Shown: positions 18,673 through 36,909, numbered from the stretch's first letter. The stretch: 64,000 nucleotides of DNA from Syntrophales bacterium (GCA_963662405.2 CAXXKT010000003.1:64001-128000), one strand, 5' to 3'. Translations and numbers: made by a program. The notes: generated by a model not told the origin, from the letters alone.

Positions 18673-20211
18673 TCATCGTCTTTTGAAGAGCCCTTTCCGG
18701 TACAAATAGTCGTAGGTTCCGGACAGGGTTGCCAGTAAGAGCACGAGTCCTCCTATCTGGACGATCCACCAGTAATGGTGAACGAATCCTCGAAACAGCT
18801 TGCCGTTGTGCACCCTCAGCAGAAAGCCCCAGAGACTGACACGGCCGTTTCGGGCAACCTTTGCCGGCATGGAAACGACACCGGTGTTTATCCCTTCGAA
18901 AGGAACAATTCCCTGCCGGTAGCCGACCCAGAAAACAGGCGTTTCATTCCGTACGGCCGCGGCGGTAATACGATTGTTCCTGTGATTTCCGATCGGATCC
19001 GTTATGACATTGCTGCTGCGGTCCCACGTGTAGAGACCTTCCGCGAAGGACCCGATAAGCAATTGTTTCTTTTTCAACCGTTTCAGGACAGTGACGTACT
19101 GGATCGGCACTGCTGCGGGGACTTGTTCGAACATCCCCGGGCCTTCGGCCGGTCCTTCGAAGAACCCGTTTAGGGTCGTCAGCAGGAGCCTGTTGTCTTC
19201 CGGCAGATAGACCGCCTTGAAGAGTGATTCATGCCATGGATCGGCCCAGGGGAAGGCGGTTAAAAGAGATGCCGGAATCGAATATCCCCTGAGAGCGGAG
19301 GAGACGGGTTTCCAGATGAGCATGCCGGTAAGGGTTATGACGATAATAAAGCAGGCACTGTATATGCCGACCTTCACGTGGTGTGTGTAAAGGCATTTGA
19401 GATACCTGCTTTTCCCCTGGGGTGAGGATTTTACGCGTCTCCTCGGCGCATACCACAGATAAAGGCCCGAAAGGGACAGGAAGATGACGGCACCGCCGAT
19501 GAGGTCGACGAAGAGTCGCCCCGGCAGGCCAAGGAGCGAACCGCTGTGGAGTTGCAAAAGAAAACGGAAGAGAGACATTCGATACTTCTGCGGTGACGGA
19601 AGCGCGAGATCGTGCGGTCGGAAGACCGGGTGCGGTAAAGCTGCCGCTGCCGTATAACAGCCCGATGGGGTAAAGGCGAAGATCCGGTTCCCTACACGGA
19701 CCAGATCGACGACATGTTCATTCCGCAATTCCCTCCCTTGTGCCCGATGCCACACGGGGTCATCCAGGTCGCAGAAATACAGACCCGACCGCGTCCCGGC
19801 AAAGAGGCGCCGCCCGGTATTGCCCTCGGAGAGAAGGAGACAGTGGGTATCGAAGTAATATGCCTGATCGGGGAACCCGTCCGTCAAGGCAGTAAAATGT
19901 CTTCCCCCGTCGGAACTCATCCACACCCCTTCCTTACCGCCCACATAGACCGTTGCCGGTTCCACCGCGGAGAAGACCACATCACGCAGGGCCATCCGAT
20001 TCCAGTTCTCATAGGTATATCGCTGCGGGAACAGGTGTACCGGAAGCGAGACACGGCCGATCAGTGCCGGGTGGTTCAACAGAACGCCGCTTACCCCCAT
20101 GATCAGACCGTAGAGCAGGATCACAAGCCCTGCGTACCGGTGAACACGGCGCGAACAGCGGAATATGTATTTTCCCCATGACATAAAACCCGTACCTCTG
20201 TACCGCATCAT
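18673..20211 (-). CDS. PepSY-associated TM-helix protein (iron-regulated membrane reductase-like)
   Basis: RRVHRYAG...SGVLLNH, LQLHSG...SGLYLW, HVKVG and LRVHNG TM-His motifs. Confidence 0.85.
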   Translation of the reverse strand: MMRYRGTGFMSWGKYIFRCSRRVHRYAGLVILLYGLIMGVSGVLLNHPALIGRVSLPVHLFPQRYTYENWNRMALRDVVFSAVEPATVYVGGKEGVWMSSDGGRHFTALTDGFPDQAYYFDTHCLLLSEGNTGRRLFAGTRSGLYFCDLDDPVWHRAQGRELRNEHVVDLVRVGNRIFAFTPSGCYTAAAALPHPVFRPHDLALPSPQKYRMSLFRFLLQLHSGSLLGLPGRLFVDLIGGAVIFLSLSGLYLWYAPRRRVKSSPQGKSRYLKCLYTHHVKVGIYSACFIIVITLTGMLIWKPVSSALRGYSIPASLLTAFPWADPWHESLFKAVYLPEDNRLLLTTLNGFFEGPAEGPGMFEQVPAAVPIQYVTVLKRLKKKQLLIGSFAEGLYTWDRSSNVITDPIGNHRNNRITAAAVRNETPVFWVGYRQGIVPFEGINTGVVSMPAKVARNGRVSLWGFLLRVHNGKLFRGFVHHYWWIVQIGGLVLLLATLSGTYDYLYRKGLFKRR

Positions 20212-20291: not shown

Positions 20292-23200
20292 TTACCGGCC
20301 TCGTTTCATTCCCTTCCACAACCCCCGTCCGATAACGGCGACAATTCCGATAACGATCAGTACCGCAATGAGCGATGCCCCCGACGAGGATATCTCGGTC
20401 GCCTTTTCCTCGGTCTTTTCCTTCATCTCGTATCCCTTGACCTCTTCCACCTTCTTCGCTCCGGTCTCTTTCGCCGCTTCATCGGGTGCCACCCGTTTCT
20501 GTGCGGTGTCCTGTGCGGTTTCCTTGACCCACTCCGGCGTGGTGACATCGAGACCGGTAGTTAGTTTGACCTGCTGTTGGAATTTGAGCATGGTGGCGGG
20601 AGAGACCAGCCCCGGGACGGAGAGGATATTGGCCGCGAACTGGTTCAGGGCGATGTTGTTGCAGGTGTGCTCGCAGCAGGCCATCCCCTTGTCCGCTACC
20701 GATTCCACATACTCGATGGCGAGATTCTGCATCATCTGGGTGTCGAATTTCTGATACCCTTTCCGATCCACCTCCATGATCCTTGCGGTAATGGACTGGA
20801 AGGCATGCGGGCTGTTCTTTTCAAAAAATTTCTTGAGATCCATGTTGTATTTGTCGTTGACATAGACTTCGCTAACCTGCTGCCAGACCTCCTGACTGAC
20901 CTCCTTGGGGGTGGTCACCTGCCAGCCCCAGAGGTTTTCGACAAAATCGGCCATCTTGTGGGCCCCGGAATAGCCGTGCTCTTTCATGCCGGTAATCCAT
21001 TTGGGGTTCAGGTAACGTCCGCGGGTCTCGAGGCCCATGAATCTTCCCAGATCGACCGCCCTGCCCGGCGCGGATGGATCCCTGTTGTCGGAGACAACGA
21101 GCTCGGGATCCTGGCCGGAGAGATTTCGGACCGCCATGGCCATGCCGCCCATGTATTGGAAGTAATCGTCGTTATCCAAGACGCCGATGAGATTGGAGGA
21201 ACGGCTGTGGACCACCATGTCGGCGCCCTTGAGCGATTCGACAAAGACCTCGCGCGACGCCTTGCCCCATACCCTGCGGCCGTAGGCATAGCTCACCCGA
21301 TCGAGATAGAGATCCACGAGTTTTTTCTCGTCCTCCCAGGTGCCCGAAGCCGATATGGCATCGTCCAAGCCCGTGCCGTAGCCCTGGTTGGGGGCGCCGA
21401 ATATGCGATAGCGGGCCATCTCCCCGGCCTCGCCAGGGGCGACGCCCTTTTCCACAAACAACTTTTGCATCTCAAGGGTGTGCAGCCGGGCGAAGTTTTC
21501 GTATTTCCCCTTTTCTTCGGCGATTGCCAGTTGAACGGCATCGTCGATCAGACCGATCTGCAGGGGGAACACATCGCGATACAGACCAGATGCATTGACC
21601 AGGATATCGATCCTGGGCCGTTTGAGTTCGGTCTCGGGGATCAGTTCGACACCCTTGACAATCCCCCGGCCATCCCATATCGGTCTCGCCCCCAGGAGGG
21701 CCAGGGCCTTCGATTCCATAACGCCGTGGTGCCGCAAGGTTTCCGTGGCCCAGAGGATCAGGGCCACCTTGTCCGGATACCGGCCGTGCTTTTTCTGATA
21801 GTCGGCAACCAGATCGTCTGCCATTTGTTTCCCGACCTTCCAGGCCACCTTGGTGGGGACCCGCTGCGGATCGAAGCCGTAGAAGTTTTTCCCCGTCGGC
21901 AGGGCGTCCGGGGCACGGATCGGATCGTTCCCCGGCCCCGGCTCGATGAACTCGCCGTTCAGGGCACGGATAATATTTGTGATTTCACGGTCGACCCGGA
22001 TCAGATTGGCGGCGTACTCCGCAGCCAGCGCCCCGGCCTTCCGGAGTTCAGTCTTTACGGTCTGCGGGCATGTCTGGTATTTTTGACCAAACATACGTCT
22101 GGCGGCATCGCCGGGGGCAATCTGTTCCAAGACGATCTTATTGACAAAATCCATGGACAGCGTTTCTATCTTATCAAGCACATCACAGTACTTGTGGGCA
22201 TTGGCCTTCGCCTTCAAGTAGTCTTCACCGATAACCCGGCCGATGATCACGCCCAGGGCCGGGATGTCACTCTCTACCCCCAGCATGGCATTAACCGTGC
22301 TGGCCAATCCCTCTCCCTCCAAGGGGTTACCCAGGATGTGCAGGCCGTAGGGGATATTCAGGTACTCAAGTTCGTGGATATAATCATGCAGCTTTCTCTG
22401 GAATTCCTCGAAGGGCATGTCATCGATTTTGACGCCCAGGTCCTTTCCAATGCCCAGTTCCCGACTCAGCTTGATCACCTCCTGCCTGTAGCCTTCGGCC
22501 ACTTTCGGGGTGACATCCTTGGTTTCCATGTAGAGGTGGATATTGTTGTGCAACACGGAATATTCTTTATAAAGACCGCTTTTCTTCAAGGCCGGAATCA
22601 TATGGCTGATAATCACCGCGGAACCACGGCGTTTAGCCTGGGTGCCTTCACCCACGTTGTCCATGATATAGGGGTTGATGTTGGGGATATCCTGGATGAG
22701 CACATCGGGTGAGCAGGTCTTGGACAGCCCCACCTGTTTTCCGGGTGTCCATTCCAGGGTGCCGTGGGTGCCGAAATGAACAACCGCGTTGACCTGGAAT
22801 GCTTCCTTGAGCCATAGGTAAAAGGCCAGGTATTGATGATGCGGCGGCAGGGTCAGGTCATGATAGAGCCGGCCAGCTTCCTGGAGCCAGCCCCTGGCCG
22901 GCTGGGGGCCGATGAAGATATTGCCCAGTAGGACCCCCGGAAGAACCAGGAACTGCTCACCTTGCGGATTTTTCCAGCTCATGATGGTAGTCTCTTCCAC
23001 CGGACCCCACTTTGAAACCACCTGATTTTGAAATTCCCGGGGAAGTTCGGTAAACCATCGGTTGTAGTCGGCCACCGGCACCAGCGTGATCACGCCCGAC
23101 CTGACCAGTTTTTCCATCTCCCCCGGCGCCCAGGTGCCGATATTGCGCCCCTGGCGCAGGACCAGATCTTGCAGGATATCCTTTGAAAAGCCTTCGGTTT

Positions 23201-24467
23201 TCTCGAACCGGTATTCCGCCTTTTCGAGTCCTTCCAGCAGGACCTGCAGGCTGGCGAAGATGTCAAGGTATGCAGCGGAGATGTTGTGCTTGCCGGGGGG
23301 ATTGTTGTAGTAGATAACCGCTATTTTTTTGTCCGCGTTGGGCGTGCTTCGAAGTCCGAGCCATCCCTTGATCCGGGAGGAGAGTTTGGCGATTCGCTCT
23401 TCATCGGGGATCCGTTCGGTGACCTCGATGCCCGTCTTTTTATCCCTGTAGGTGCGGCTGCCGCCAATCACCAGCGGTTCGATCAGCCCGCAGAGTTCGG
23501 GCATGAAAATCTGAGAGGCCAACTGGAACGGCTCAATTCCCTGGGGGCTTTCCGCCCACTTTTGAAGGTCGCTGTAGAGGGTGACGGCCCGGATGACCGG
23601 CACATCCATTCCTTTCAGCAGCTCCTGGGATTTTTCCTTGGGGTGGGAAAACATGAGCGAGACGATAAGTTCCACTTCGGGCTTTTCTGTCATCAAGTAC
23701 TTTTCCATCAGCATGTCGGCCGGATACCCGATGGCGCAAATCACGTTGAACCCGTCTTGCTCGAGCCTGCGGATCAACGCCTCCTGGATCTTGCTGTCCC
23801 CAGTCTTGATGAGATTGTAGGAGAGGATTCCCACCCAGGGGCCCTGTTTCTGATGCCCGGATGACGCATACCAGGCCTTGTAACCGGTAAGGCTTGCAAG
23901 CACCTTTGAATCAGGCGCATCGGGATGAAAAATGCCTTCGGGGGGTTGCGCGACAGGCTCTATAATTTTTGCCTGCGAAAGGCCACCGAAGCGGTTCAGC
24001 AGATAGCCGATCAGCCGTTTCATGTTCTCTACGCCGTTGTACTCCCAATAGGCCTGTATATCCGGGTGGGCGTCGAAGCTTACATTGTAAAATCCCTGAC
24101 TGGCAAAAATAGCCGCCCCCCCGATACCGATCACCCTGGCGCCGTTTTGCTTGGCGGTTGTTATCCGGGGTTCGATGTCCTGCATGGTTTGGTAATCCTT
24201 ATGGTACAAAAAGATGACATCCTGGTTGACAAGATCCTGTTCATTGCGCTTATCCAGAAGCGCCTCTTCGCTGTAAACCGTTATCTTGACCATGGGGACC
24301 AGATTCGGGTGTTCCTGCTTGAATCCGGAAATCCCTTCCGCCAACACCTTGGTGTGGGTGTCGGGTACCGAGAAAGTGAGGCGAAATGGTTGTCCTGCAA
24401 AGGCGTCGACCGCACCGAAAAGCAAAATCAAGACAACTGAGAGTACACCGCATATGCCGTGTCGCAT
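20292..24467 (-). CDS. cobN: CobN/Mg-chelatase H-like protein with signal peptide and C-terminal membrane anchor (HmuS-like)
   Basis: YYNNPPGK, PPHHQYLAFY, HFGTHGTLEW, GEGTQAKRR, LPTGKNF, LDNDD and NPKWI...HGYSG motifs; CCEHTC near the C-terminus. The symbol denotes the family only. Confidence 0.92.
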   Translation of the reverse strand: MRHGICGVLSVVLILLFGAVDAFAGQPFRLTFSVPDTHTKVLAEGISGFKQEHPNLVPMVKITVYSEEALLDKRNEQDLVNQDVIFLYHKDYQTMQDIEPRITTAKQNGARVIGIGGAAIFASQGFYNVSFDAHPDIQAYWEYNGVENMKRLIGYLLNRFGGLSQAKIIEPVAQPPEGIFHPDAPDSKVLASLTGYKAWYASSGHQKQGPWVGILSYNLIKTGDSKIQEALIRRLEQDGFNVICAIGYPADMLMEKYLMTEKPEVELIVSLMFSHPKEKSQELLKGMDVPVIRAVTLYSDLQKWAESPQGIEPFQLASQIFMPELCGLIEPLVIGGSRTYRDKKTGIEVTERIPDEERIAKLSSRIKGWLGLRSTPNADKKIAVIYYNNPPGKHNISAAYLDIFASLQVLLEGLEKAEYRFEKTEGFSKDILQDLVLRQGRNIGTWAPGEMEKLVRSGVITLVPVADYNRWFTELPREFQNQVVSKWGPVEETTIMSWKNPQGEQFLVLPGVLLGNIFIGPQPARGWLQEAGRLYHDLTLPPHHQYLAFYLWLKEAFQVNAVVHFGTHGTLEWTPGKQVGLSKTCSPDVLIQDIPNINPYIMDNVGEGTQAKRRGSAVIISHMIPALKKSGLYKEYSVLHNNIHLYMETKDVTPKVAEGYRQEVIKLSRELGIGKDLGVKIDDMPFEEFQRKLHDYIHELEYLNIPYGLHILGNPLEGEGLASTVNAMLGVESDIPALGVIIGRVIGEDYLKAKANAHKYCDVLDKIETLSMDFVNKIVLEQIAPGDAARRMFGQKYQTCPQTVKTELRKAGALAAEYAANLIRVDREITNIIRALNGEFIEPGPGNDPIRAPDALPTGKNFYGFDPQRVPTKVAWKVGKQMADDLVADYQKKHGRYPDKVALILWATETLRHHGVMESKALALLGARPIWDGRGIVKGVELIPETELKRPRIDILVNASGLYRDVFPLQIGLIDDAVQLAIAEEKGKYENFARLHTLEMQKLFVEKGVAPGEAGEMARYRIFGAPNQGYGTGLDDAISASGTWEDEKKLVDLYLDRVSYAYGRRVWGKASREVFVESLKGADMVVHSRSSNLIGVLDNDDYFQYMGGMAMAVRNLSGQDPELVVSDNRDPSAPGRAVDLGRFMGLETRGRYLNPKWITGMKEHGYSGAHKMADFVENLWGWQVTTPKEVSQEVWQQVSEVYVNDKYNMDLKKFFEKNSPHAFQSITARIMEVDRKGYQKFDTQMMQNLAIEYVESVADKGMACCEHTCNNIALNQFAANILSVPGLVSPATMLKFQQQVKLTTGLDVTTPEWVKETAQDTAQKRVAPDEAAKETGAKKVEEVKGYEMKEKTEEKATEISSSGASLIAVLIVIGIVAVIGRGLWKGMKRGR

Positions 24468-24468
24468 C

Positions 24469-24831
24469 CTACCGTTCCTCCTCTCCTTCGGGTATATAGA
24501 CCACCTTGCCGTCCTGGAGCCGGTAGGCCGTTCCCAGTCTCGTTCCCTGCCCCTGGGCCATCTCCTTTGTCAGTTTCTGGACCTTGATCTCTTTTCCTTT
24601 TTTGCTGATAATCTCCATCTTTCCCGGTTGATTGGGATTCTTGATCATGGTCAGTTCATCGGCGGAGAATATCTCGTGAATGTGGTAGGCGCTGACCATG
24701 GCCACCAGCAGGCCGACGGCAAAGACCATGGCGACATCGAACAGATTTGCCACACCGCTCATGGGATCGTCCTGATGTATGGGACTTTTCCTGCGGCGGT
24801 TCTTTCGTTTATCTCTTCGCGTAAGTTTCAT
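24469..24831 (-). CDS. DUF2149 protein (HmuV-like)
   Basis: DDPMSGVANLFDVAMVFAVGL...G.RLGTAYRLQDGKVVYIPE. Confidence 0.9.
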   Translation of the reverse strand: MKLTRRDKRKNRRRKSPIHQDDPMSGVANLFDVAMVFAVGLLVAMVSAYHIHEIFSADELTMIKNPNQPGKMEIISKKGKEIKVQKLTKEMAQGQGTRLGTAYRLQDGKVVYIPEGEEER

Positions 24832-24839
24832 GTGTATCC

Positions 24840-25562
24840 TCAGTTCATTGAGAGCTCGATAATATTTTGTCCTTCCTCTTGTCCTGAAGGGGACACATCA
24901 TTTTCGATATGTCCCATGATCAGATCGACGATGTACTCCATGTTTTGCATATCTTCGCCGTACCAGCGCTCTCTGACGACCGAGATGATGTAGGCGAGTA
25001 CCCCCACCGCCAGTCCCGCTACCGTCGTTCCGAAGGCGAGGATCAGACAGTTCGCCATCTGTTCCAGGTCCCCCTGCGACAGCGAGAGGAGCGCCGGCCC
25101 CATGGGGATGAGGGTCCCCATCAGTCCCAGCATCGGTCCGACCCTGATCATGATCCGTGTTTTTTCCAGTGTTGCGTGGGTGTCATTTTCATATGACTGC
25201 AGGATCTTTTCCGTCCGTACGTCGAGATTGCTGATCCCCCTGGCGATCTGGCGGGACAGGTCTCTGAAGAAGTTCTCCACTGTCAGGGGGAGGGACGAAA
25301 GGCCTTCCGTGTACTGTGCAATGCGCTCTGCGGCCCCGTCGGCGCGCGACTGTAACAGGTCGCGGGCGACCTCCTCGGCGAGTCTTTCGCTTTTTTCATC
25401 CGCCGCATGAACCTGCTTTCGGCGAAACACGGCTTCCGAGGCGAAACCTCCCAGGACGAAGAGGGCCGCAACGACCAGTAACAGCAACACCACTATTACC
25501 GGGTAGAGGAGGGCGTTCATGATCAGATAGAGCCCTGCCTGCATGACATCCAAGACGTTCAT
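24840..25562 (-). CDS. MotA/TolQ/ExbB proton-channel protein (HmuU-like)
   Basis: GPMLGLMGTLIPMGPAL...LAFGTTVAGL; start MNVLD chosen from RBS. Confidence 0.9.
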   Translation of the reverse strand: MNVLDVMQAGLYLIMNALLYPVIVVLLLLVVAALFVLGGFASEAVFRRKQVHAADEKSERLAEEVARDLLQSRADGAAERIAQYTEGLSSLPLTVENFFRDLSRQIARGISNLDVRTEKILQSYENDTHATLEKTRIMIRVGPMLGLMGTLIPMGPALLSLSQGDLEQMANCLILAFGTTVAGLAVGVLAYIISVVRERWYGEDMQNMEYIVDLIMGHIENDVSPSGQEEGQNIIELSMN

Positions 25563-25567
25563 TTTTC

Positions 25568-26320
25568 TCACACCTCGTTTCTGATTTGTTTGCTGCGTGC
25601 AGTTTCCCTGCGGTTCTTTATAAAGCCCAGGCAAAAGATGAGGCCCCCGGTACAGAGCAGGATGACCGAATCTCTCAGAGACACCGCTGCGGCGGCGGAG
25701 ATCCCTCTCACCGCGAGGAGTGCCTTGGCCTTCGAATAAACGGGGACGACGACGATGGCCACGGCAAAATAGAGACCAACCATGGTCATGAAAAAGCCGA
25801 GGAGGACCGGTCCCCGTGTTCTCTCCGTGTCACGTCTCATCCGGTGCCGGGCAACCAGGGCGGCACCGGCAATCCCCGCCGTGAAAAGAACCGCCATTCC
25901 CCCCCCGACCTGCAGGGGATCCATACCGGTGAGGGCCACGCAGATGGAACAGCTCAGGAGCATGGCGGAAAGGCACACAGGACAGGGGAGCATCAGGAGA
26001 TATCCGGCCCTCGATCTCCCCTGGGGGTACTCGTAAAAGGCGGATTTCATGGTATATAATCCCCATGCCATCAGGCCGAGAGAGAGAAAGAAATGAACCA
26101 TGACTCCGTGAAACATGAATTTCTGAAAGAACTGAAAATAATCGAGGGGGTTGGCAATCCTGATGCCAACCCCCAACAGGAAGGCGATGACACCGTACAG
26201 CAGGGCAAGCGCGACAATGCCGGATGTCCTGATATTCATGGAACCGGCCACCATGCCGGCCTTGCCGGCGAATATCAGTACGGTGAAAACAATCCCGAGG
26301 GCCCAAAAGTACGTAATCAT
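25568..26320 (-). CDS. DUF2162-type predicted membrane transporter (HmuT-like)
   Basis: About 7 TMs, LPCPVC motif and LGFFMTMVGLYF. Confidence 0.8.
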   Translation of the reverse strand: MITYFWALGIVFTVLIFAGKAGMVAGSMNIRTSGIVALALLYGVIAFLLGVGIRIANPLDYFQFFQKFMFHGVMVHFFLSLGLMAWGLYTMKSAFYEYPQGRSRAGYLLMLPCPVCLSAMLLSCSICVALTGMDPLQVGGGMAVLFTAGIAGAALVARHRMRRDTERTRGPVLLGFFMTMVGLYFAVAIVVVPVYSKAKALLAVRGISAAAAVSLRDSVILLCTGGLIFCLGFIKNRRETARSKQIRNEV

Positions 26321-26329
26321 CGCTGCTCC

Positions 26330-28393
26330 TTAAAAGGTGTATTTCACACCGGCCATGAAGGATGCCGGCGGATTGTTGGTCGTGTAGTATTCCTTGTAAT
26401 CCTCGTCGGTGAGATTGTTCACTTCACCGAACACCTCAAGCCCTTCACGGATCTCACGGGAGATCTTCAGACCGACCACCTGATAGGCATCGAGTTTTTT
26501 CGAGTCCGTATTTTCCAGATCTCCATAGCGTTCGCCCACGTTGGTGAGAAAGACACCCAGGGTAAAGAGATCCGGGTTATCGTACGTAACGCCGATCTTG
26601 GTCATGTGACGGGGGGTATAGGAAAGATAATTCCCCTCGACGGTTCGATCTTCCTCGTACTCCTCAATCGTTGATACGTTGTAGGTATGATTGATGAATG
26701 TCGACCACTGATTACTGATTTTGTATTCGAGATTGGCCTCGACACCGTAGATCTCAACCCTCCCCAGGTTGATCGTCTGGATGACCGCCATCCCGTCATC
26801 CGGTGAAAACCATGAAGGAACTTCCGATGCCGCGAGTGTCTTCTCTCCCAGAAAATCCTTGATACTGCTCTGGTAGAAGGTCATGCTCACGCACAGCTTT
26901 TTGTGGGGGGTGGCATCGAATCCGACGTCGTACGACCATTCCATCCGCTCCGGCTCCAGATCCGGGTTCGCCAGATCGAACCGGGTGGAACCGTGAGGTC
27001 CGGATTTATAGAGGTCATAGAGGGAGGGTGCCTTGAACCCCGTACCGAAAGATGCCCGGAACTTGATCGCCGGATTGAGCTTGTAGCTCACGCCTATCTT
27101 GGGTGAAAGGGCCTGGTCGGTGTTGTCGGGATAGATAATGGTTCGTGCCGTCGATGTCGTCGAATCGTAGAAGTCGCCATCATGGTTCTTCCAGTAATCG
27201 TAGCGCAGACCGGCATTGACGATGAGCCGATTCCCCAGAAAACCGATCTCGTCGTTGACGAACAGTGCATAGAGATCCTGCTCTCCGCTGAAATTGCGGT
27301 CACCCGTGCTGTATGCATATTCGCATGTGCATTTCGCCCATTTCAGATCACTCCCCGCCGTGAGTTTGTGGCCGGCGAGCTCGGTGCTGACCTGGAACAT
27401 GACGCCGTATTCATCCTTGGGGATAGTCGAATCGTAATAGTAGGTGTCGAATTTGCCCGACGTGGAGTTATACGTGTCGGCGTTTGATTCGTATCCCTCG
27501 TCGTAGTAGTAGGCCTTGACATTAAAGTCGGTCTTTTTCCCCAGGGGGACCCCCCAGCTGAGCATGTATTCGTCGGTCTTCTGCTCGCCGTCATACTGGG
27601 TTGTCGTGGCGCTCAGAGAGTCTTCCAGGAGGTGTGCGTAGTCCAGACGCAGGATCGATTCCCCCAGCCATATGTCCCCTCCGATGGAGATGTTGGTCAG
27701 TTCATTCTCGGGTTTCTTGTAATAGTTCTTCCACGATGAACCCTCGTAGTACTCGTACCCCTGTGTCCGTTTATGTTCAACCGAGGCACGAACGCTGTAG
27801 TCGTCGGTCCCGGCATTCACGCTGGCACTCCCCATATAGGTATCAAAGGAGCCGCCCTGCATGGTGACGGTCCCGGAGACCCCCTCCTTGGGATGTTTGG
27901 TGATGATATTGATCACACCGCCCATGGCGCTGGAACCGTAGAGGGCGGACGAGGCCCCCCGCACGATCTCGATCCGTTCGATATTCTCCAGTGATAACGT
28001 GTTCCAGAGCGTGACCGAACTGCCGTATGTCCTGTTGATGGGGATGCCGTCCTTGAGCACCAGAACCCTGCCGCTGTCTCCCGTCCCGCGCATGTACACG
28101 GTGGTATGACTGGTCGTGTTGCACAGTCCCTTGTTGCGACGGACCTGCAGACCCACGGCCTCATTCAGGACCTCGTCCACCGTCGAGACAGGCATCTTCT
28201 CAATCTCTTCAGCCGTTATAACGGTAACACTGACCGGGAGATCCTCCACGGCGGTTTCGGTCCGCGTAGCGGTGACCACGGTTTTCTGCATCTCCACCGA
28301 TGGAGGGCTGCTCTCGGCCGCGGATGCTTGAACCGCGGGAACAAACCAAAAAACTGTGAGGAACAGGGCCAATTTGAAACGAAGCTTTTTCAC
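26330..28393 (-). CDS. TonB-dependent outer-membrane receptor
   Basis: TonB box VVTATRTE; plug-domain IERIEIVRGASSALYGSSAMGGVINIIT; NPDLEPE; terminal F. Confidence 0.95.
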   Translation of the reverse strand: MKKLRFKLALFLTVFWFVPAVQASAAESSPPSVEMQKTVVTATRTETAVEDLPVSVTVITAEEIEKMPVSTVDEVLNEAVGLQVRRNKGLCNTTSHTTVYMRGTGDSGRVLVLKDGIPINRTYGSSVTLWNTLSLENIERIEIVRGASSALYGSSAMGGVINIITKHPKEGVSGTVTMQGGSFDTYMGSASVNAGTDDYSVRASVEHKRTQGYEYYEGSSWKNYYKKPENELTNISIGGDIWLGESILRLDYAHLLEDSLSATTTQYDGEQKTDEYMLSWGVPLGKKTDFNVKAYYYDEGYESNADTYNSTSGKFDTYYYDSTIPKDEYGVMFQVSTELAGHKLTAGSDLKWAKCTCEYAYSTGDRNFSGEQDLYALFVNDEIGFLGNRLIVNAGLRYDYWKNHDGDFYDSTTSTARTIIYPDNTDQALSPKIGVSYKLNPAIKFRASFGTGFKAPSLYDLYKSGPHGSTRFDLANPDLEPERMEWSYDVGFDATPHKKLCVSMTFYQSSIKDFLGEKTLAASEVPSWFSPDDGMAVIQTINLGRVEIYGVEANLEYKISNQWSTFINHTYNVSTIEEYEEDRTVEGNYLSYTPRHMTKIGVTYDNPDLFTLGVFLTNVGERYGDLENTDSKKLDAYQVVGLKISREIREGLEVFGEVNNLTDEDYKEYYTTNNPPASFMAGVKYTF

Positions 28394-28595
28394 CAGTATT
28401 TCTCCTTTCTGGGAATATTCTCATTGACGCGCCCCTCTCGATTCCGGTAAAAAATACAAGAGGGAGTCCTCTCGAACGAAAGAGGGGGCGTGCCTTTTCC
28501 GGGACAGGCGGGCGTGATCTTGCCGGACCACCCGCCGTCCCACCTTTCATGTACTCACCATCCGCTCAGACCGTACGCAGGTCCTTCACATCCCG

Positions 28596-29414
28596 TCACG
28601 GCTTGACCTCAAAGGTCAGCGTTGCCTGGTAGCTGTACTGGTCCGCCATCTGGAGATCGGGATAGGGGAGCTTGTGGTTGACGAATATCATCCATATTCC
28701 CGGCTGGAGGAGCCTGATCTTGGCAACCCCGTTGTGGTATGCGGAGGCCCAGGCGGTGTAGGCGAATACGTCCGTCTCATTGCTAAACCCCATGTACGTG
28801 GCATATACCATCACCGATTCATCGAGGGGTTTCCCGTTGTGGAGTACCTGCAGCGGGAGTATGTCGTTGGTCCGCAGTGCACCGGGATCCTTCAGGGGCA
28901 CGATCTCAAGGCCGTGGCCGAGCACTGTGGAAAACCCCTTTCCTCTCGCCGTTCCGTCAACATTGACGACGGCCTTACAGAAATTTTGCGAATATCTGAT
29001 GCTTCCCTTGATCGTTTCGCCCTTCAACTCTTTCTTCGATTTGAATTGATACCCCTTGTCGGTAAAACCCCCGAAGTTCCCTTTACTCTCCATGACGACA
29101 AGGTAAGTCCCTCCCGCGAGGTCTTCTTTCGATTCAAACTGAACCTGGGAATATTCCCCCTTGCCCAAGACACGAGGGCCTGTTTTCCCCTCTCCTCCAT
29201 CGGGCCCCAGGGTATACAGTCTTGCCATCTTATCGTTGGCAAAAAAACTGTGTCCCATGGGGTAGTTGTGCCCGTAGGCGATGTGGAACCTGATCGATTC
29301 ACTTGCCTTGGGGGTGTACTTGTTCGCATTGATCCACGGATGGCACGCATGGGCGGCGGTGGACAATAAAAAGACCACGCCGACGGCAGCCATCCCCCAT
29401 GTCAGTTTCTTCAT
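28596..29414 (-). CDS. DUF4198 (NikM-like) periplasmic protein
   Basis: Signal peptide AHA|CHPWI, IAYGH, LEIVPLKDP and YQATLTFEV. Confidence 0.85.
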   Translation of the reverse strand: MKKLTWGMAAVGVVFLLSTAAHACHPWINANKYTPKASESIRFHIAYGHNYPMGHSFFANDKMARLYTLGPDGGEGKTGPRVLGKGEYSQVQFESKEDLAGGTYLVVMESKGNFGGFTDKGYQFKSKKELKGETIKGSIRYSQNFCKAVVNVDGTARGKGFSTVLGHGLEIVPLKDPGALRTNDILPLQVLHNGKPLDESVMVYATYMGFSNETDVFAYTAWASAYHNGVAKIRLLQPGIWMIFVNHKLPYPDLQMADQYSYQATLTFEVKP

Positions 29415-29436: not shown

Positions 29437-30696
29437 TTAATGGAACACCCTTGTGATTTTTTGTGCCGTTCTTTGCTTCTCCCCGGTCCGCTCCTCGATC
29501 TGAGCCAGCGCCCTCCGGGCCGCATCCCGCTGCCCAGTGAAACGGGATGCTTGGGTCAATGCCTCCTTCGCTTCGCGCCACCGGTGCAGTTTCAGCGCAC
29601 AGTACCCCAGGTACAGTGCCGCACTTCCGTTTTCCGGCATTAGGTGGAGACAGTGCTGAAAGGCGTCGTAAGCATTCCGGTATTCTTCGCGGTTATACTC
29701 AACGCTCCCCAGCAGGTGCCACAGGTGGGCGGAGGATTGCTTCTCGATCGCCCGGATCAATACTTCCGCGGCTTTGTCCGATCGATGTGCGGCGAGGTAG
29801 GTCGATACAACCCGCTCATAATCGTCAAAGGAGGAATCCCACTGCAGTATCCGTTCGTACTGAACCGCCGCTTTCAAGGGGACACCGCCAAGCCGGTACA
29901 GGTTGCCCAGTCTGAGCACGTCCTCACGCCCCGCCTCCGTCAGATTAAGATACAACTCGTATGCGGCGGCCGCCTTGTCATAGACCCGATCCTCGATGTA
30001 GAGCTGTGTCATCCGTTTCAACCAGCGCGGGTGGTCTCCGCCCCGCGCAAGAAGCTGTCTGAGTACCGTCATTGCATCTTCGTGTTTTCCCAGTTTTCCA
30101 TACACGTCGAGAAGGGCTTCGCACCAATCGGTTCGTATCTCTTTCACATCGGTAGAGCAGATCCGTTCGAGACAGGAGAGTGCCTCTTCGGGCCTGCCGT
30201 CTCTGATACGGCAGACGGCGGTCTGATAGAGCAGATCCGGTTTTTCCTCCGCCGTCAGGATATATGCCTTGTGAAACGAGTCTCCGGCCTTTCCGAATTG
30301 TTTCAGGTCGTAGGCAACCTTTCCCCTGTTGAGCCAGAGGTCGGCATCGGCGTCGTACCGGGCAATCGCCTCCTCGTAATAGGACAGGGCTTCATTCCTC
30401 CGACCGGCCAGGGCCGAGGCGTTACCCAGGGTAAAGAAGATCAGATAATGGGTCTTATCCCGCTTCCCGGATAGAAAATGCAGCAGCATCTCCTGGACCT
30501 CGGTGTATTTTTGGGCCGTCATGGCCTGACGTGCCTGGGTCAGGATCCATTGTTCCGAAGGGGTCGGGGACGAACCCGCGAACGATATGACCGGTGAAGG
30601 CATCAGTATCGCTGACAGGCAGATCACCAGAGCCGCCGCGAAGGGTTTTGCCATGCCACACCATGCATATCGGGAGAAGGGGCGCTGACGGTTCAT
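29437..30696 (-). CDS. Tetratricopeptide-repeat protein (TtpD-like partner of TonB system)
   Basis: Multiple TPR helical repeats, directly downstream of tonB. Confidence 0.85.
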   Translation of the reverse strand: MNRQRPFSRYAWCGMAKPFAAALVICLSAILMPSPVISFAGSSPTPSEQWILTQARQAMTAQKYTEVQEMLLHFLSGKRDKTHYLIFFTLGNASALAGRRNEALSYYEEAIARYDADADLWLNRGKVAYDLKQFGKAGDSFHKAYILTAEEKPDLLYQTAVCRIRDGRPEEALSCLERICSTDVKEIRTDWCEALLDVYGKLGKHEDAMTVLRQLLARGGDHPRWLKRMTQLYIEDRVYDKAAAAYELYLNLTEAGREDVLRLGNLYRLGGVPLKAAVQYERILQWDSSFDDYERVVSTYLAAHRSDKAAEVLIRAIEKQSSAHLWHLLGSVEYNREEYRNAYDAFQHCLHLMPENGSAALYLGYCALKLHRWREAKEALTQASRFTGQRDAARRALAQIEERTGEKQRTAQKITRVFH

Positions 30697-31406
30697 CCGG
30701 CATCCTCCAGACGAAAAACGATACTGGTCGTTACCCGTGTGGTGACGGGCCGTCCGCGCAGAAGGCCCGGCTCGAAACGCCAGGTGGTGAGTGCCTCAAG
30801 GACATTCCTGTCGAACACGCCAGGTGGATCTGCTCCCATAATCTTTATGTTCCGAACCGCCCCGTTGGTATCCACCAGAAATGTGACATTGACCTCTCCG
30901 GAGATGTTGAGCCGCCTGGCGCGGTATGGGTATGCCGGCGGTGTTTTGGCGATAGTCACAGGGACATGATCCACCTCGGTTTCGTTGTAGACTGCCCTCT
31001 CGCGGACCGTGACATTGTTCGGTCGGTCGCTGTCTGGGAACGGGAGACTCGGACTGGCGATGGGACGAGGGGTGATGTCGATATGAACCGTTTCGACGGG
31101 GAGATGCGGGAGCGTCGCCCCCTTGCTACGCAACGGTATCACCAGATCTTCAGGGACGGTCATTTCTTGTCTTTCCGGGGGCCGAACCACATCGCGGGGC
31201 TTTTCAGGTGTCGGGAGAGGGGATTCCTCGGGGAAAGAGATCGTATCAATGAATCGGAAACCTTCTGCCACGTCATTCCCGAGAGGTGTCGGTGTCTTCT
31301 GCGCCATCATAAAATAGGGCAGCACAATAAAAAGCAGTGCATTAATCAGTAAGGCGATACCCGAAATCGAAAGGTTCTGTCGGTATGATCGTTCCATCGT
31401 GATCAT
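30693..31406 (-). CDS. tonB: Energy transducer TonB
   Basis: N-terminal TM, Pro-rich linker, YPYRARR...GEV.V.F.V..G and WRFEPG. Confidence 0.92.
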   Translation of the reverse strand: MITMERSYRQNLSISGIALLINALLFIVLPYFMMAQKTPTPLGNDVAEGFRFIDTISFPEESPLPTPEKPRDVVRPPERQEMTVPEDLVIPLRSKGATLPHLPVETVHIDITPRPIASPSLPFPDSDRPNNVTVRERAVYNETEVDHVPVTIAKTPPAYPYRARRLNISGEVNVTFLVDTNGAVRNIKIMGADPPGVFDRNVLEALTTWRFEPGLLRGRPVTTRVTTSIVFRLEDAG

Positions 31407-31822
31407 CGGCCCTCCGGCCGCTTAGCGGCGATACTGACATCGGAGGAGCCGGCCAAGCGACACTGATCCATAACATCAATAACCACACCGGTGTGACTGT
31501 CACGATCAGCAATAATGACGGTTTCTCCCTCTGGGTTTTCGGCCAGTTCCTTTTCGACATAGGCGCGTACCATGCGGATATCGATCTGTTTCTTGTTCAT
31601 GAAGATCTGTCTGTTGTCGTCGATGGCAATGAAAATCGCTCCTTTCTCCCTGATCTCCGCCGTTTCTGCCATCGGTCGTTGCACATCAACGCCGGCCTCC
31701 CGGACAAAACTGGTCGTGACCATGAAAAAGATCAGGAGGAGAAAAACCAGGTCGATCAACGGCGCCATGTTGATCTCGTCACTGTACTGGGCGCTTTTGA
31801 GGGATTTGCGTGTACGAATCAT
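31403..31822 (-). CDS. exbD: Biopolymer transporter ExbD
   Basis: INMAPLIDLVFLLLIFFMVT; start overlaps the exbB stop (TGATG). Confidence 0.95.
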   Translation of the reverse strand: MIRTRKSLKSAQYSDEINMAPLIDLVFLLLIFFMVTTSFVREAGVDVQRPMAETAEIREKGAIFIAIDDNRQIFMNKKQIDIRMVRAYVEKELAENPEGETVIIADRDSHTGVVIDVMDQCRLAGSSDVSIAAKRPEGR

Positions 31823-32415
31823 CAGAGGCACCTCTGCACGGCCAGAATGGTTTCATCCAGGCGGTTGTCCAGTTTACTGGCATGTTGCTGTATCAGGCGG
31901 GCCATAAAAAGACCCGGGATGCCGACCAAAAGCCCGCTCTGTGTGGTTATCAGTGCTTCGGAGATACCCGCCGCCAGTGCTTTTGCATTGGCTGTCCCGA
32001 AAGAGGTGATTACGTCGAACGTGTCGATCATGCCGTTGACCGTTCCAAACAATCCCAACAACGGTGCCGCTGCCGCGAGGGCGGTCAGGACTTCCAGCGA
32101 GTACCACAGACGGTTTCTTTGAAGCAGTGCGTAATGGTCCAGGATATGCCGGTCCAGTTTTGTCTCACCCCGGATATGGAGAACAAACGCCCGCAGCATC
32201 GGTGTGCACAAATTGGTGGCCATGACGGACGGGAGGTGGTGCTTGTTCAGTTCCACCTGGATATCTTTTGTGTCGGCGCCGATCTTTCCCAGACGATGGA
32301 AAAAAACGAGCCGTTCGATAATCAATCCCCATGCCAGAAGAGAAACGATAATGATAAACACCATAACCGGACCGCCTGCCCGGAGGTATGCTATCGAGGT
32401 GTATACTACTTCCAT
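31822..32415 (-). CDS. exbB: ExbB (MotA/TolQ/ExbB)
   Basis: APLLGLFGTVNGMI...GISEALITT. Confidence 0.92.
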   Translation of the reverse strand: MEVVYTSIAYLRAGGPVMVFIIIVSLLAWGLIIERLVFFHRLGKIGADTKDIQVELNKHHLPSVMATNLCTPMLRAFVLHIRGETKLDRHILDHYALLQRNRLWYSLEVLTALAAAAPLLGLFGTVNGMIDTFDVITSFGTANAKALAAGISEALITTQSGLLVGIPGLFMARLIQQHASKLDNRLDETILAVQRCL

Positions 32416-32463
32416 GTCGTATGTTTCTTCACTTTCTACCGGTTCATTCCCATGAACCTTTTC

Positions 32464-33903
32464 TTAGCTGGCGATTACCCGGGAAGGCTGCGGATCGGCT
32501 TGCCCATTGATGGTGCTTTCTCTGCAGATAATGTTGCTCAGAGTCAGCGCCTTCTCCTCCATGTCTCCCGCGATATGCTCAATTCTACGTCGCAGAAACG
32601 CATGCGCCAGCATCACGGGAATGGCCACGGCAAGCCCCAGCATCGTGGTTATAAGCGCTTCTGAAATCCCGCCTGCCATCAAACGGGGATTGCCTGTTCC
32701 ATAGAGACTGATGACTTGAAAGGTCGTAATCATACCGGTCACCGTTCCGAGCAATCCCAGGAGCGGCGAAACGGCCGCCATCACACTCAGGAGGGGGAGG
32801 AACCGTTCCAGGCGCGGCAACTCTTTGAGAATCGCCTCATTGAGTATGTTCTCAAGGGTCTCACGGGATTTATGAATTGCCCCGAGACCGGCTTTCAGGA
32901 CATTTGAGACGGGGCTGTCTTTCTCCTTTGAAAGGATCCTGTGACAGCGTTCCCATTCTTCCTGAATGGCCATCTTGTTGACCCGTCCCATAAGGCGATC
33001 GGTGTTTGCATGCACTTTATGCAGGAAGATCAGACGCTCGCAGATCAGGAGAAAGGCGACCACTCCGATGGCCAGTATCGGCCAGATCAGGATGCCACCT
33101 TTCTTAAGCTTTGTCAGAAACGTGGAATGCTGTGCCACATGTTCCAACGCCGGGCCGATCGACGGATCAATGTAGACCGTATCGGACTCGCCGGTTATAT
33201 ACCGTTGTATTCCATGTCGCATCCGCCAAGGGAGTTGACCTCCCAGTGCGACAAATCGCCGATTTGTTTTGTCATACCGCAAGAAACCGACGTCACCGCC
33301 GTCCTGGTACACCGTGCAAAACGGGCCGACGGTCAGTATGCTCCCTGTCCTTTCAACCCCGTCCCGGCCGACGAAGGTACCCTCAAACCGTTCCACTTCC
33401 CCGGTCAGCCTCATTTCTTCAAAGAAGAGGTCGGCGAGGGCCTTTATGTCATCAATTCCGGGAAACCGGTGAGGATCCATGATCGATTCCAATGTACCCA
33501 GACGCTCCGGCCAGCGAGCGGTGAACTGGGAACGCTCAAGAATCGCATGCAGATCCCGGGAGACCTGGTGCACGACAGCGGCATACTCGTCAATCTGTTC
33601 CTGTTTTTCGCTTCGACGAAGGGTGAGCTCCTCTTCGTTCTGAATCAGGAGCGACAACTCCTTTTCTTTGTGGTTTACCCGATCCTGCAGTTCTTGTACC
33701 CGCGATTGCATATCCGAGATGGCCTGCTGCAGGGCGGTCTGATCCTGAAGTATCTGTTCTCGACGGAGCTTGGCTTCCGAAAGGGCGGCTTCATAAGCTG
33801 CCTGTGCCTTTTGGGATGCGGCCCGCATATCCATTGCCGATCCGGTGCCGGCACGGAACACGATCGTGCCGAAGATGATACAGAATACGATGGCTCGTCT
33901 CAT
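32464..33903 (-). CDS. Long MotA/TolQ/ExbB protein with N-terminal coiled coil (TtpC-like)
   Basis: Signal peptide, coiled coil, and C-terminal SPLLGLLGTVTGMI...GGISEALITT. Confidence 0.88.
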   Translation of the reverse strand: MRRAIVFCIIFGTIVFRAGTGSAMDMRAASQKAQAAYEAALSEAKLRREQILQDQTALQQAISDMQSRVQELQDRVNHKEKELSLLIQNEEELTLRRSEKQEQIDEYAAVVHQVSRDLHAILERSQFTARWPERLGTLESIMDPHRFPGIDDIKALADLFFEEMRLTGEVERFEGTFVGRDGVERTGSILTVGPFCTVYQDGGDVGFLRYDKTNRRFVALGGQLPWRMRHGIQRYITGESDTVYIDPSIGPALEHVAQHSTFLTKLKKGGILIWPILAIGVVAFLLICERLIFLHKVHANTDRLMGRVNKMAIQEEWERCHRILSKEKDSPVSNVLKAGLGAIHKSRETLENILNEAILKELPRLERFLPLLSVMAAVSPLLGLLGTVTGMITTFQVISLYGTGNPRLMAGGISEALITTMLGLAVAIPVMLAHAFLRRRIEHIAGDMEEKALTLSNIICRESTINGQADPQPSRVIAS

Positions 33904-34712
33904 GGGATCGCAATCCTTCCCAGGGGGAGCGAAACCGTTTCTAAGGGGTGCCGATGCAGGGCCATTTCAAAGACCTGATTAATATCTCTGCCATACCGGG
34001 TGGGAAGTGGTCCCCACCGTTCAGTCGCCCGGTTATACCACCCGATGCGTTCGCCATCCGGAGCCTTGTAGAAGAGTGATAGTCGACCAATATTCACCAC
34101 ATCCGCCGCGATAATCGTGCCGGACGTGTTGATGATCTGTGCTGATACCAGAAGATCACGGCCATATTTTGTTTCTACCTGTAACGCCTCAAGGGTACGA
34201 CGGCACTTCTCGGCCAGGGACGTGTCCAAACGGGGTAACAGGTTATTCAATTCCTTCACGCGACGCTGGCGTTCCACCGTACAAAAGGGCAGATCGTTTG
34301 CCACGAAGGAGGAAAGTCGTTCGCTGATTGTTTCCAGAGTGCATTGCATTTCCTCCTGCACCCGTTTCATCTCGATAATCGAGCGTTTCTTTTCTGCCAT
34401 CGTCTTTCGATGCACCTTCAAGTCATTCGTGAGGATCGTGTCGCGGTTTTCAAGCTGTTCGATCATGTCCTCCAGCATCTGGTATCGTTCCCTCAATCTG
34501 GCCCGCTGGCCCGCCCACCGGTTTTCCGATTTCTGGATCTCTCTGTGGACATTGATTTCCTTGACGATCGTTTCATGAACATCCAATGGATGCTCGGCAG
34601 CCCCGGTACAGATCGGTAAAAACAATAGGAAGACAATAATGCCGAAGCCTGAAGCCGCCGCGGTTTTCCCATCAATACCCATAAAATTCCCCAGTTCTTT
34701 TCGTATCATCAT
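33900..34712 (-). CDS. DUF3450 protein (TtpB-like)
   Basis: DLPF...ER..R, EKCRRTLEALQVE.KYG and IGRLSLFY; start codon uncertain. Confidence 0.85.
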   Translation of the reverse strand: MMIRKELGNFMGIDGKTAAASGFGIIVFLLFLPICTGAAEHPLDVHETIVKEINVHREIQKSENRWAGQRARLRERYQMLEDMIEQLENRDTILTNDLKVHRKTMAEKKRSIIEMKRVQEEMQCTLETISERLSSFVANDLPFCTVERQRRVKELNNLLPRLDTSLAEKCRRTLEALQVETKYGRDLLVSAQIINTSGTIIAADVVNIGRLSLFYKAPDGERIGWYNRATERWGPLPTRYGRDINQVFEMALHRHPLETVSLPLGRIAIP

Positions 34713-34909
34713 TTGCAAATCCCCTGTGGCGGGATGAAAGATTTCACGGAATCCGGTTTCTTCTCCCCGGTGAGTCAGCACTGGTTTGATTGCCACCGCA
34801 CGGACCACATCGAACCGGCCCCGGTGGCTATCGGGTTATGGGCCAACCTCGATGTCCCGGCAGAACCACGGACCCCCACCAAGCCGCAGAGATCATCCGT
34901 TCCTCTTGT

Positions 34910-35083: not shown

Positions 35084-35326
35084 TTAATCGGTTAATATAT
35101 ATGTTTCGCCATACGATCCCCTGATGCTGCACCGGCAACCCAGGACCCTTCTCATGGGCGCGCTGTCCTCATGCCGTTGTTTCAGTTCCACTCGCAGCCT
35201 GCCGAGACTGACAAGGGTATCCAGCGCCTCTTTCACCCGTTTCCTGTCGGCCTGCAGCTTGAAGGCCAATTCAAGGACGTTGAATCGATTCTTTTCCCTG
35301 AATACTTCCAATATCTTATCCGCCAT
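35084..35326 (-). CDS. FeoC-like winged-helix protein
   Basis: 80 aa from MADKILEVF; wHTH with C-terminal GCRC; GGGAGG RBS; feo context. Confidence 0.65.
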   Translation of the reverse strand: MADKILEVFREKNRFNVLELAFKLQADRKRVKEALDTLVSLGRLRVELKQRHEDSAPMRRVLGCRCSIRGSYGETYILTD

Positions 35327-35390
35327 AACGTACCTCCCGGTCCCGGGGAGTCGAGAAAACCGCTTCCCGATCCCGCTTAATCGTGTGTGA

Positions 35391-36707: not shown

Positions 36708-36909
36708 CTCCTCCCGATCGGTTCCCGACTGAAGGGCACGTGCATGTACCGTACCGTTTCACAGTATGGTGAGATCAGGATTGCTGCCGTTCCCGTATGG
36801 GCAGTCAGGACGCGGCAAGAAAGCGCCAGTAATGATTTGATCTTTGTGTCATCGAAAACCGATCATCTCCTTGCCTGAAGTCCTGTACTGCCAATTCATC
36901 TCCCATTAA

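Follow-up and report, generated by a model that had tools for sequence, protein, structure and literature searches.

Among the closest described systems is the hmuYRSTUV operon of Bacteroidota, for instance of Bacteroides thetaiotaomicron, which encodes HmuS, an exported and membrane-anchored homologue of class I chelatases that has no AAA+ partner (PDB 9d26/9p4s; PMC12583661, PMC13227078, PMC10100974). HmuS dechelates haem without ATP, its residue His538 is essential, and the purified soluble protein converts haem to protoporphyrin IX and Fe(II) with NADH and without a motor (PMC12583661). The accompanying proteins HmuU and HmuV have been assigned to energising the receptor, together with an unlinked TonB (PMC10100974; PMC12583661). 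Mesle et al. reported hmu-like operons with B12 riboswitches as well as HmuS and HmuV homologues in Proteobacteria and Methanomicrobia (PMC10100974). BtuS, a third CobN type, was proposed for metalloporphyrin salvage (PMC6460266, citing Rodionov et al. 2003) and is also named for Methanosarcina barkeri (PMC10846266), and Wagner et al. (2012) described a cluster in Geobacter lovleyi that lacks CobS and CobT and whose role was given as unknown (PMC3403914). Across the superfamily, the majority of bacterial and archaeal proteins are said to defy annotation, the archaeal role being unclear (PMC12583661). The present text deals with a module of this kind on a stretch of 64,000 nucleotides (nt) from a Syntrophales bacterium (GCA_963662405.2, CAXXKT010000003.1:64001-128000; denoted as the window, positions counted from its first nucleotide), where a TonB-dependent receptor gene is followed by genes for DUF2162, MotA_ExbB, DUF2149, and a CobN-like protein.

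This run of genes is a genuine BtuS-type periplasmic module, which probably works like the Hmu system and lies outside the HmuS family. The five genes are located on the minus strand with intergenic gaps of 9, 5, 8, and 1 nt, and all open reading frames (ORFs) are intact at the places given by the original prediction, which was made from the sequence of the window and recognized them as one coupled unit. Since the identical gene order is repeated across many unrelated genomes, the module is not a product of chance. The same or a permuted order was found in Desulfobacterota, Brocadiae, Acidobacteriota, Proteobacteria, Cytophagia, a firmicute, and, as stated in the original prediction, methanogens. 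It is identical (receptor, DUF2162, MotA-like, DUF2149, CobN) in the cobN-exbBD-tonB cluster of the Geobacter (Trichlorobacter) lovleyi plasmid pSZ77 (PMC3403914), a copy that differs from the window module in being B12-riboswitch controlled, lying among cobalamin genes, and belonging to a sister clade. Given the G. lovleyi report of 2012 and the reports from Proteobacteria and Methanomicrobia, there is nothing new in finding such a module outside Bacteroidetes, and its occurrence there, which the original prediction had emphasized, is neither rare nor unreported; the kind of system is already known and is common in Desulfobacterota and methanogens. Newly described here is a sub-branch of the enzyme with an iron context and its own histidine pair (His89/His275), plus a short strand by which a motor grip can be tested. 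A literature search, with subscription journals and supplements outside its scope, yielded neither titles nor abstracts that deal with this sub-branch, with the function of DUF2162, or with a contact between motor and chelatase; the cluster datasets of PMC12583661 may contain these proteins.

Identity of the CobN-like protein and its sub-branch

In a Kyte-Doolittle hydropathy scan, the CobN-like protein displays hydrophobic segments at residues 5-23, overlapped by the motif A-F-A at 22-24, and at 1362-1380, followed by a basic tail. The two peaks, the cleavage-type motif, and the basic C-terminus point to a signal peptide (1-24) and a C-terminal transmembrane (TM) helix (1362-1380), so that the enzyme body probably resides outside the cytoplasm, as had been predicted together with the CCEHTC motif that does begin at residue 1264. 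Two trees were computed, one with FastTree from 120 rows and one with IQ-TREE from a 32-row subset (an LG+G4 quick tree with no mixture model). Both set a membrane-anchored branch apart from soluble CobN and BchH. This branch (24 rows; support of 98 in the Shimodaira-Hasegawa-like approximate likelihood ratio test, SH-aLRT) comprises the window protein, HmuS, archaeal, and many bacterial forms, and the window protein forms a sub-branch of its own inside it (SH-aLRT 100). The enzyme thus belongs to the BtuS-type membrane-anchored branch, with which it shares the predicted export signal, the C-terminal anchor, the MotA-like and DUF2149 partners, and the lack of CobST/ChlID. The phylogeny proposed earlier as a check hence upholds the kinship with the hmu/BtuS system.

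An assignment to HmuS itself does not stand. The closest solved relative is HmuS (9d26, 523 bits; ChlH 469, CobN 462), and identity to plasmid-borne HmuS proteins amounts to approximately 30%; however, a single clade with the three HmuS rows, which sit on a long branch, was rejected in the approximately unbiased (AU) test (p 0.00012), and the residues specific for HmuS are missing. The motif HFGTHG, an instance of the HFG(T/A)HG pattern shared throughout the superfamily, occurs at 564-569, and its His568, corresponding to the essential HmuS His538, is kept in 24/24 sub-branch proteins. The column of HmuS Met79 (head domain) is occupied by Lys90, with His89 adjacent, and that of His254 (HGR motif, neck) by Phe273, with His275 two residues on. 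The HmuS motif LSLDHxxEFMGG with His1209 is replaced by LDNDDYFQYMGG with Asp1101, an Asp found in all 24 proteins of the sub-branch. The methionine-rich insertion of domain IV is absent: the corresponding part has 97 amino acids (aa) with 3 Met, a length also found in soluble CobN, whereas three HmuS proteins have 129-318 aa with 7-31 Met. Beyond the essential central His, the module has in common with hmuYRSTUV a TonB-dependent receptor, an ExbB-like gene (HmuU), DUF2149 (HmuV), and the implication of FeoAB; it differs in its gene order, in the absence of HmuY, in having DUF2162 with CPxC, not recognizable as HmuT, and in a host with haem-synthesis genes. As a separate observation, a soluble, anchorless CobN/BchH-like clade from archaea and Desulfobacterota (loci L085, L087, L083, L076, L078, and L091) has an LDH motif with a His at the position of HmuS His1209.

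Grouping with canonical soluble CobN was rejected as well (p-AU 5.6e-6), and the protein passed none of the nine CobN/BchH equivalogs (best 1070 bits against a cut-off of 1619). CobNST and ChlHID/BchHID resemble it in the PF02514 fold and the HxG[TK]HG motif, and CobN also in the Asp-type central motif, but these systems work as soluble proteins in the cytoplasm and draw on ATP through AAA+ partners, which are absent from this genome. That the protein is an ordinary cytoplasmic CobN of aerobic B12 synthesis is therefore largely refuted and highly improbable. This label is what databases suggest, with automatic names such as ‘cobaltochelatase CobN’ and the Pfam family PF02514, and a MoxR-like AAA+/vWA pair is encoded elsewhere on the contig, far under the chelatase cut-off. 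The predicted signal peptide and anchor, the tree test, the failed equivalogs, and a genome without CobS, CobT, and CbiC all speak against it.

The sub-branch comprises 24 aligned proteins that are 48-86% identical; its cultured carriers include Desulfosarcina ovata and D. variabilis. His89 is present in 23/24 (the remaining one has a gap) and His275 in 24/24; the two lie one and two columns from the HmuS haem ligands, positions at which the majority of sister proteins carry Met and lack His. To judge from this conservation, His89/His275 is likely a bis-His site. From its BtuS-type sisters, the sub-branch, known here from sequence, also differs in being rare and in having no B12 riboswitch. 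None of 7 genomes of the same genus has a CobN homologue, and close matches were found in 2 of 400 genomes of the phylum, in 2/401 of a Desulfobacterales-order sample, and in 1/251 of a further order-level sample, with one genome shared. This pattern suggests lateral acquisition.

Metal context, surroundings, and host

The regulatory context separates the sub-branch from its sisters. An Rfam scan covered 22 module loci that do not belong to the sub-branch and 12 that do. A cobalamin riboswitch was found 15-224 nt before the receptor gene in 12/22 of the former and at 1.1 kb in one more. In the sub-branch, none was detected in the 4 loci with enough upstream DNA (the window, G733, L129, and L134), nor in any of the 12 scanned. 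The idea that the 202-nt leader of the window receptor conceals a riboswitch was rejected, as no Rfam match was obtained up to E 5 and the folding of the leader (z -1.1) is no better than that of shuffles; a sigma-70 promoter scan returned fewer sites than in shuffles.

Upstream of the module and on the same strand lie dtxR, two feoA genes, feoB, an LbtU porin gene, and a FeoC-like gene (Table 1). The palindrome TTAG-N6-CTAA occurs in exact copies before feoA2 and at 9442, and with one mismatch before feoA1 (42742); the two exact copies in the window compare with 0.27 expected, and 2/100 shuffles reach two. The same box precedes feoA at the loci L021 and L135, and at L067 it adjoins dtxR. Among the sub-branch loci, G733 has the box, a flavodoxin gene, a second cobN, the module, and then FecI, FecR, and a receptor; in L135, box and feoA follow cobN, and in G383 a flavodoxin-domain gene is located downstream. 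Flavodoxin, FeoAB, FecIR, and DtxR are markers of iron starvation. The sub-branch has an iron, not a B12, context.

The receptor falls into a five-member clade with receptors of the same sub-branch (SH-aLRT 99), apart from HmuR and from the host receptor behind a B12 riboswitch. In the comparison with NCBIfam, no family exceeded its cut-off, the best being TonB-hemin with 237 bits versus 207 for B12.

Table 1. Coordinates of the module, its motifs, and neighbouring features in the window
Feature	Position	Strand	Remarks
TonB-dependent receptor, 687 aa	26330..28393	-	PF00593 + PF07715
DUF2162 inner-membrane protein, CPVC at 113-116 (C113/C116, nt 25973-25984)	25568..26320	-	E 7e-36
MotA/ExbB/TolQ-like channel subunit (HmuU-like)	24840..25562	-	MotA_ExbB E 1e-10
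DUF2149 (HmuV-like), one TM helix with NLFD (Asp32) and small beta-rich periplasmic domain	24469..24831	-	E 3e-33
BtuS-type CobN-like protein, 1391 aa	20292..24467	-	CobN-Mg_chel 1152 bits (PF02514)
VKGYEM strand (residues 1343-1348), candidate grip for a DUF2149 dimer, 13 residues ahead of the C-terminal anchor	20424..20441	-	
CCEHTC motif of the CobN-like protein, residues 1264-1269	20661..20678	-	
DUF4198 exported protein, accessory	28596..29414	-	also adjoins the module in sub-branch loci L127 and L133
Terminator-like hairpin in the 202-nt gap 5' of the receptor gene	28457..28474	-	
Separate complete TonB system: DUF3450, two ExbB-type genes, ExbD, TonB, TPR	29437..34808	-	
Iron-uptake block: feoA x2, split feoB, DUF4198, LbtU-family porin, DUF2325, FeoC-like small protein	35084..42694	-	
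DtxR/IdeR-family metal-dependent repressor	42774..43343	-	
Palindromic TTAG-N6-CTAA box 5' of feoA2, candidate DtxR-type operator	42365..42378	.	
PepSY-associated TM protein, 80 nt downstream of the module	18673..20211	-	

One proposal on the surroundings of the module has to be modified. The PepSY-associated protein, suggested as a reductase, is not conserved: it does not stand beside the module in other sub-branch loci, and among the loci examined only one other (L061, outside the sub-branch) matched, so that it was rejected as a core reductase. Within the iron-uptake block, feoB consists of two parts (39502-42067), a 243-aa GTPase ORF overlapping a membrane ORF by 14 nt, which represents either a natural split or a frameshift. 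A small, unlisted exported ORF between feoB and the DUF4198 gene (39043-39502) begins with MKRWII and contains AHTPL; a protein with a similar AHTPL start (8408-8893) sits behind the TTAG-N6-CTAA box at 9442, and neither it nor the protein at 8890-9327 has a Pfam match.

The host has a 3.8-Mb genome in 3 contigs (100% complete, 1.76% contamination). As it shares its phylum with a genome placed in the order of Desulfobacter curvatus, it is a member of the Desulfobacterota. The whole genome encodes one CobN homologue, no ChlI/D-type protein or CobS above cut-off (the MoxR-like AAA+/vWA pair remains far below it), and no match to CobT, CbiK, CbiC, CbiX, or HmuY (PF14064, detected in the control B. 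thetaiotaomicron); the lack of cobS, cobT, chlI, chlD, and an HmuY-like hemophore, first noted for the window, therefore extends to the genome. With neither CbiK nor CbiX, no sirohydrochlorin ferrochelatase was found, a CysG-type enzyme not having been searched for. The host carries a NiFe hydrogenase. It also has hemA and ahbD, so that haem taken up from outside would be of use as a source of iron. Five cobalamin riboswitches are located in the genome, all outside the window; two head a separate salvage operon (receptor, BtuF-CbiZ, class I/II aminotransferase), and one precedes metE.

DUF2162, the MotA/DUF2149 pair, and the tail of the enzyme

The assumption that the window encodes the same families as the hmu operon holds for the receptor, the CobN-like protein, MotA, and DUF2149, but was not borne out for DUF2162 versus HmuT. 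No kinship between the two was detected, at a profile-profile probability of 2.5% obtained with a shallow HmuT profile of 3 sequences; three genes at the HmuT position have no Pfam match, and the two sequences inspected lack CPxC, which is present in 56/56 DUF2162 homologues. The protein is predicted as a helical membrane bundle (predicted local distance difference test, pLDDT, 87). No structure reached E 0.001 in Foldseek, the ESM Atlas yielded nothing usable, and the best VIA-align hit, half an MFS transporter (Z 9.1, rmsd 4.3, 149 aligned), lies within the noise of helical bundles, so that a CcdA/DsbD or NicO-like fold is unsupported. Among 60 anchored proteins with full flanks, 27 have both the Cys motif and a DUF2162 neighbour, 22 neither, 11 the Cys motif only, and 0 DUF2162 only. 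DUF2162 is a candidate for an electron or metal relay. One might speculate, by analogy, that a thiol/metal relay bringing in cytoplasmic reductant would fit the NADH dependence of HmuS. Two related arrangements were noted on the side. On a Runella plasmid (L010:1977-12694), the module is surrounded by hyp genes for hydrogenase maturation, and a NicO/DsbD_2-like gene takes the place of DUF2162, which suggests a nickel-linked version, and in deltaproteobacterial metagenome-assembled genomes (L066:7592-24410 and L065), 2-4 tandem CobN-like paralogues follow one DUF2162-motA-DUF2149 set.

The MotA-like protein (PF01618 above cut-off; no solved relative found by sequence) has GLMGT at 146 and FGTT at 177, the same motifs as the window's own ExbB. 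In DUF2149, N29, L30, F31, and D32 are invariant in 82 homologues, and NLxD is present in 108/109. Threonine motifs in ExbB-type TM helices and an aspartate in the TM helix of the partner are functional residues of ion motors. The DUF2149 model is of low confidence (pLDDT 65, predicted template modelling score 0.27), with the best Z of 3.7 to generic helices; fold searches gave no informative match, and in this low-confidence comparison the periplasmic domain showed no match to ExbD in sequence or fold. In 77 full-length CobN-like proteins with full flanks, DUF2149 is encoded nearby for 50/60 with a called C-terminal TM and for 8/17 without; those 8 are mostly proteins of the anchored branch below the hydropathy threshold used.

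Several observations speak for a load of this motor other than the receptor. A separate TonB-ExbBD set, which could energise the receptor without the MotA/DUF2149 pair, is encoded beside the module, which itself lacks a TonB. In archaeal loci with a tail-anchored CobN, DUF2149 and MotA adjoin in 10/19 and a receptor in 0/19. Finally, the chelatases share a conserved VxGxxM strand a short way ahead of the C-terminal anchor, and the tail of strand plus TM helix is family-wide; its profile matches 113/118 anchored but 7/58 other CobNs, a count that is partly circular, since 87 of the tails built the profile. In TonB, the D-box, a strand beside the membrane anchor, is captured by the ExbD dimer (PMC10907165). 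The likeness extends to the ExbB-like subunit and the single-TM partner with a TM Asp, and the strand by the anchor would be the grip; the load, however, would be an enzyme instead of an outer-membrane receptor, and with a C-terminal anchor the polarity would be opposite to that of TonB.

A folding test with two copies of DUF2149(50-120) and residues 1322-1362 of the CobN-like protein scored 0.39 against 0.01 for the best control, which was graded as weak support; at least 83% of the contacts are common to the runs, and the partner pLDDT is at least 51. The mark applied was reached by 116/157 solved complexes and 2/215 mismatches, and at values up to 0.60 by only 18 solved complexes and both mismatches. 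The test thus weakly predicts that the VxGxxM strand binds DUF2149 like the D-box of TonB, and together with the receptor-less archaeal loci it lends some plausibility to the earlier suggestion that the pair powers the CobN-like protein. In the full form of this idea, MotA/DUF2149 would be a dedicated ion motor with the enzyme as its load; the DUF2149 dimer would grip the tail strand and drive the catalytic cycle, replacing the AAA+ ATPase where no ATP is at hand, in bacteria and archaea alike, and the bis-His site of the sub-branch would retune the machinery from corrinoids to iron tetrapyrroles. As a whole, this is a tentative and rather doubtful proposal.

The tail was also encountered outside CobN. 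A class III periplasmic binding protein of Ca. Methanolliviera (L083:6488-9096) has a chelatase-type tail and is encoded directly upstream of motA-DUF2149; it is the best non-CobN match among 9,266 C-termini (E 1.2e-4). A second non-CobN protein with the tail (L077:414-2330) has no Pfam match.

Weighing the possible roles of the module

The leading account is that the module salvages iron in the periplasm from an imported metallo-tetrapyrrole, haem or a relative, possibly driven by the motor; its chance is put at a little short of even. The receptor would draw its energy from the TonB-ExbBD set next to it and import the chelate, whose nature is suggested by context, the protein families being observed. 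At the cleft of head and neck, the conserved His89/His275 would hold the tetrapyrrole in place of Met79/His254 of HmuS, and the metal would be released at the central His568, by analogy to the chemistry of HmuS. The CPxC motif of DUF2162, which co-occurs with CCEHTC, might hand over reducing power or metal via the latter, and MotA/DUF2149 may grip VKGYEM as ExbD grips the TonB D-box. Freed iron would then be taken up by FeoAB, and the observed surroundings suggest that expression is under iron control.

Several observations weigh against this account. All 4 HmuS-specific features tested are absent, including His1209, one of the two central-cation histidines, in whose place the CobN-type Asp1101 is found. 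The receptor passes no substrate-specific family cut-off. Regulation by iron is clouded by the leader of the module, which has no box of its own (the nearest exact one lies approximately 14 kb upstream of the receptor), by the terminator-like hairpin before the receptor gene, and by 8/12 scanned sub-branch loci that end too close upstream to judge regulation. The riboswitch-controlled sisters L021 and L067 are also near dtxR/feo-type genes, so the iron neighbourhood is not exclusive to the sub-branch, and B12-riboswitch control of most sister modules suggests that the wider branch is concerned with corrinoids or cobalt. After correction for kinship, the link between Cys motif and DUF2162 shrinks to 4 pairs to 0 and is not significant (p 0.125). 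As to the motor, the pattern of two threonines fits only 65/109 MotA-like proteins, and since soluble HmuS works without a motor, none is needed for the chemistry there. When 1.84 billion proteins were searched with the tail, 53/54 of those with at least 200 aa among the best 150 matches are CobN-like, the lone other being a repeat protein that matches the spacer only, and 96 matches below 200 aa were left unclassified; the tail, nearly confined to CobN, is accordingly not a widely swapped module.

In a rival reading, the module would serve the salvage of corrinoid or cobalt: it would import a corrinoid or cobalt tetrapyrrole and remove or exchange the cobalt, as its B12-switched sisters probably do, the iron genes being mere neighbours on a metal-uptake island. 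The riboswitches directly before the receptor in 12/22 loci outside the sub-branch, the location of the T. lovleyi module between B12 gene clusters (PMC3403914), and the CobN-like central motif LDNDDYFQYMGG agree with this, as does P0339, a natural fusion of 1948 aa in which a BtuF-like periplasmic binding domain and CbiZ are joined to a CobN-like domain with a tail anchor; moreover, a host without corrin-ring genes must salvage. Yet the same host, which uses five riboswitches elsewhere and has a separate salvage operon, shows none in the window, nor do the 3 other informative loci of the sub-branch, which recurs with flavodoxin, feoA, and FecIR and is distinguished by its His pair and its own receptor clade. 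A corrinoid role for the window module is thus unlikely, though a serious contender. It is improbable, too, that the CobN-like protein is a device for capture and hand-over, trapping the intact chelate until the motor pulls the tail and releases the cargo to DUF2162 for import. The missing His1209, the membrane helix bundle of DUF2162, the tailed binding protein of L083 (not a CobN) upstream of motA-DUF2149, and the resemblance of the HmuS head and neck to periplasmic binding proteins (PMC12583661) would suit such a device; against it stand a catalytic body that is strongly conserved throughout, HFGTHG and the CobN-type Asp motif included, the proof that HmuS is an enzyme, the fact that L083 is a single case, and a tail profile that matches almost only CobN.

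Periplasmic insertion of a metal into a scavenged tetrapyrrole, or the scavenging of nickel from F430-type compounds, with the motor replacing the ATP energy of CobNST, has a slim chance. Insertion by class I chelatases depends on mechanical energy (PMC7689651), and as dechelation by HmuS needs none, this would explain why the motor was kept; the active-site motif is CobN-like, many homologues come from methanogens, the host has a NiFe hydrogenase, and the related Runella module stands among hyp genes with its NicO/DsbD_2-like partner. However, no nickel-specific gene recurs at the annotated sub-branch loci, whose context is iron starvation, periplasmic insertion has no evident use in a host with cytoplasmic haem synthesis genes, and for F430, named earlier as a possible substrate, no specific evidence was found. 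Iron salvage in the periplasm remains the preferred reading.

The sub-branch, with its candidate haem ligands and iron context in an anaerobe with haem-synthesis genes, offers a handle on the annotation gap of the superfamily, and if the iron-salvage reading is true, anaerobic sediment and digester communities recycle tetrapyrrole iron by this route. With a six-residue strand and its partner domain named, the idea of an ExbBD-like motor driving an enzyme can be put to a peptide-binding test; if true, it would be a new use of this class of motors and would explain their retention in archaea without outer membranes.

Further features of the window concern its remaining parts. A run downstream of the module (11634-17652) encodes a NifX-like protein, a MetA-pathway beta-barrel, a class III periplasmic binding protein with Cys motifs, a transglutaminase-like protein, three methyltransferases, and DUF4405; homologues of its O-methyltransferase are found near the sub-branch locus of G733 (L212). 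A c-di-GMP-I riboswitch (54341-54430) is located upstream of a FliD-domain gene (53006-54301). Between 60001 and 64000, the GC content drops to 36-37%, and genes with ATP-grasp and SIR2-like domains in this part possibly represent a defence island. An IS110 transposase is encoded at 51623-52786.

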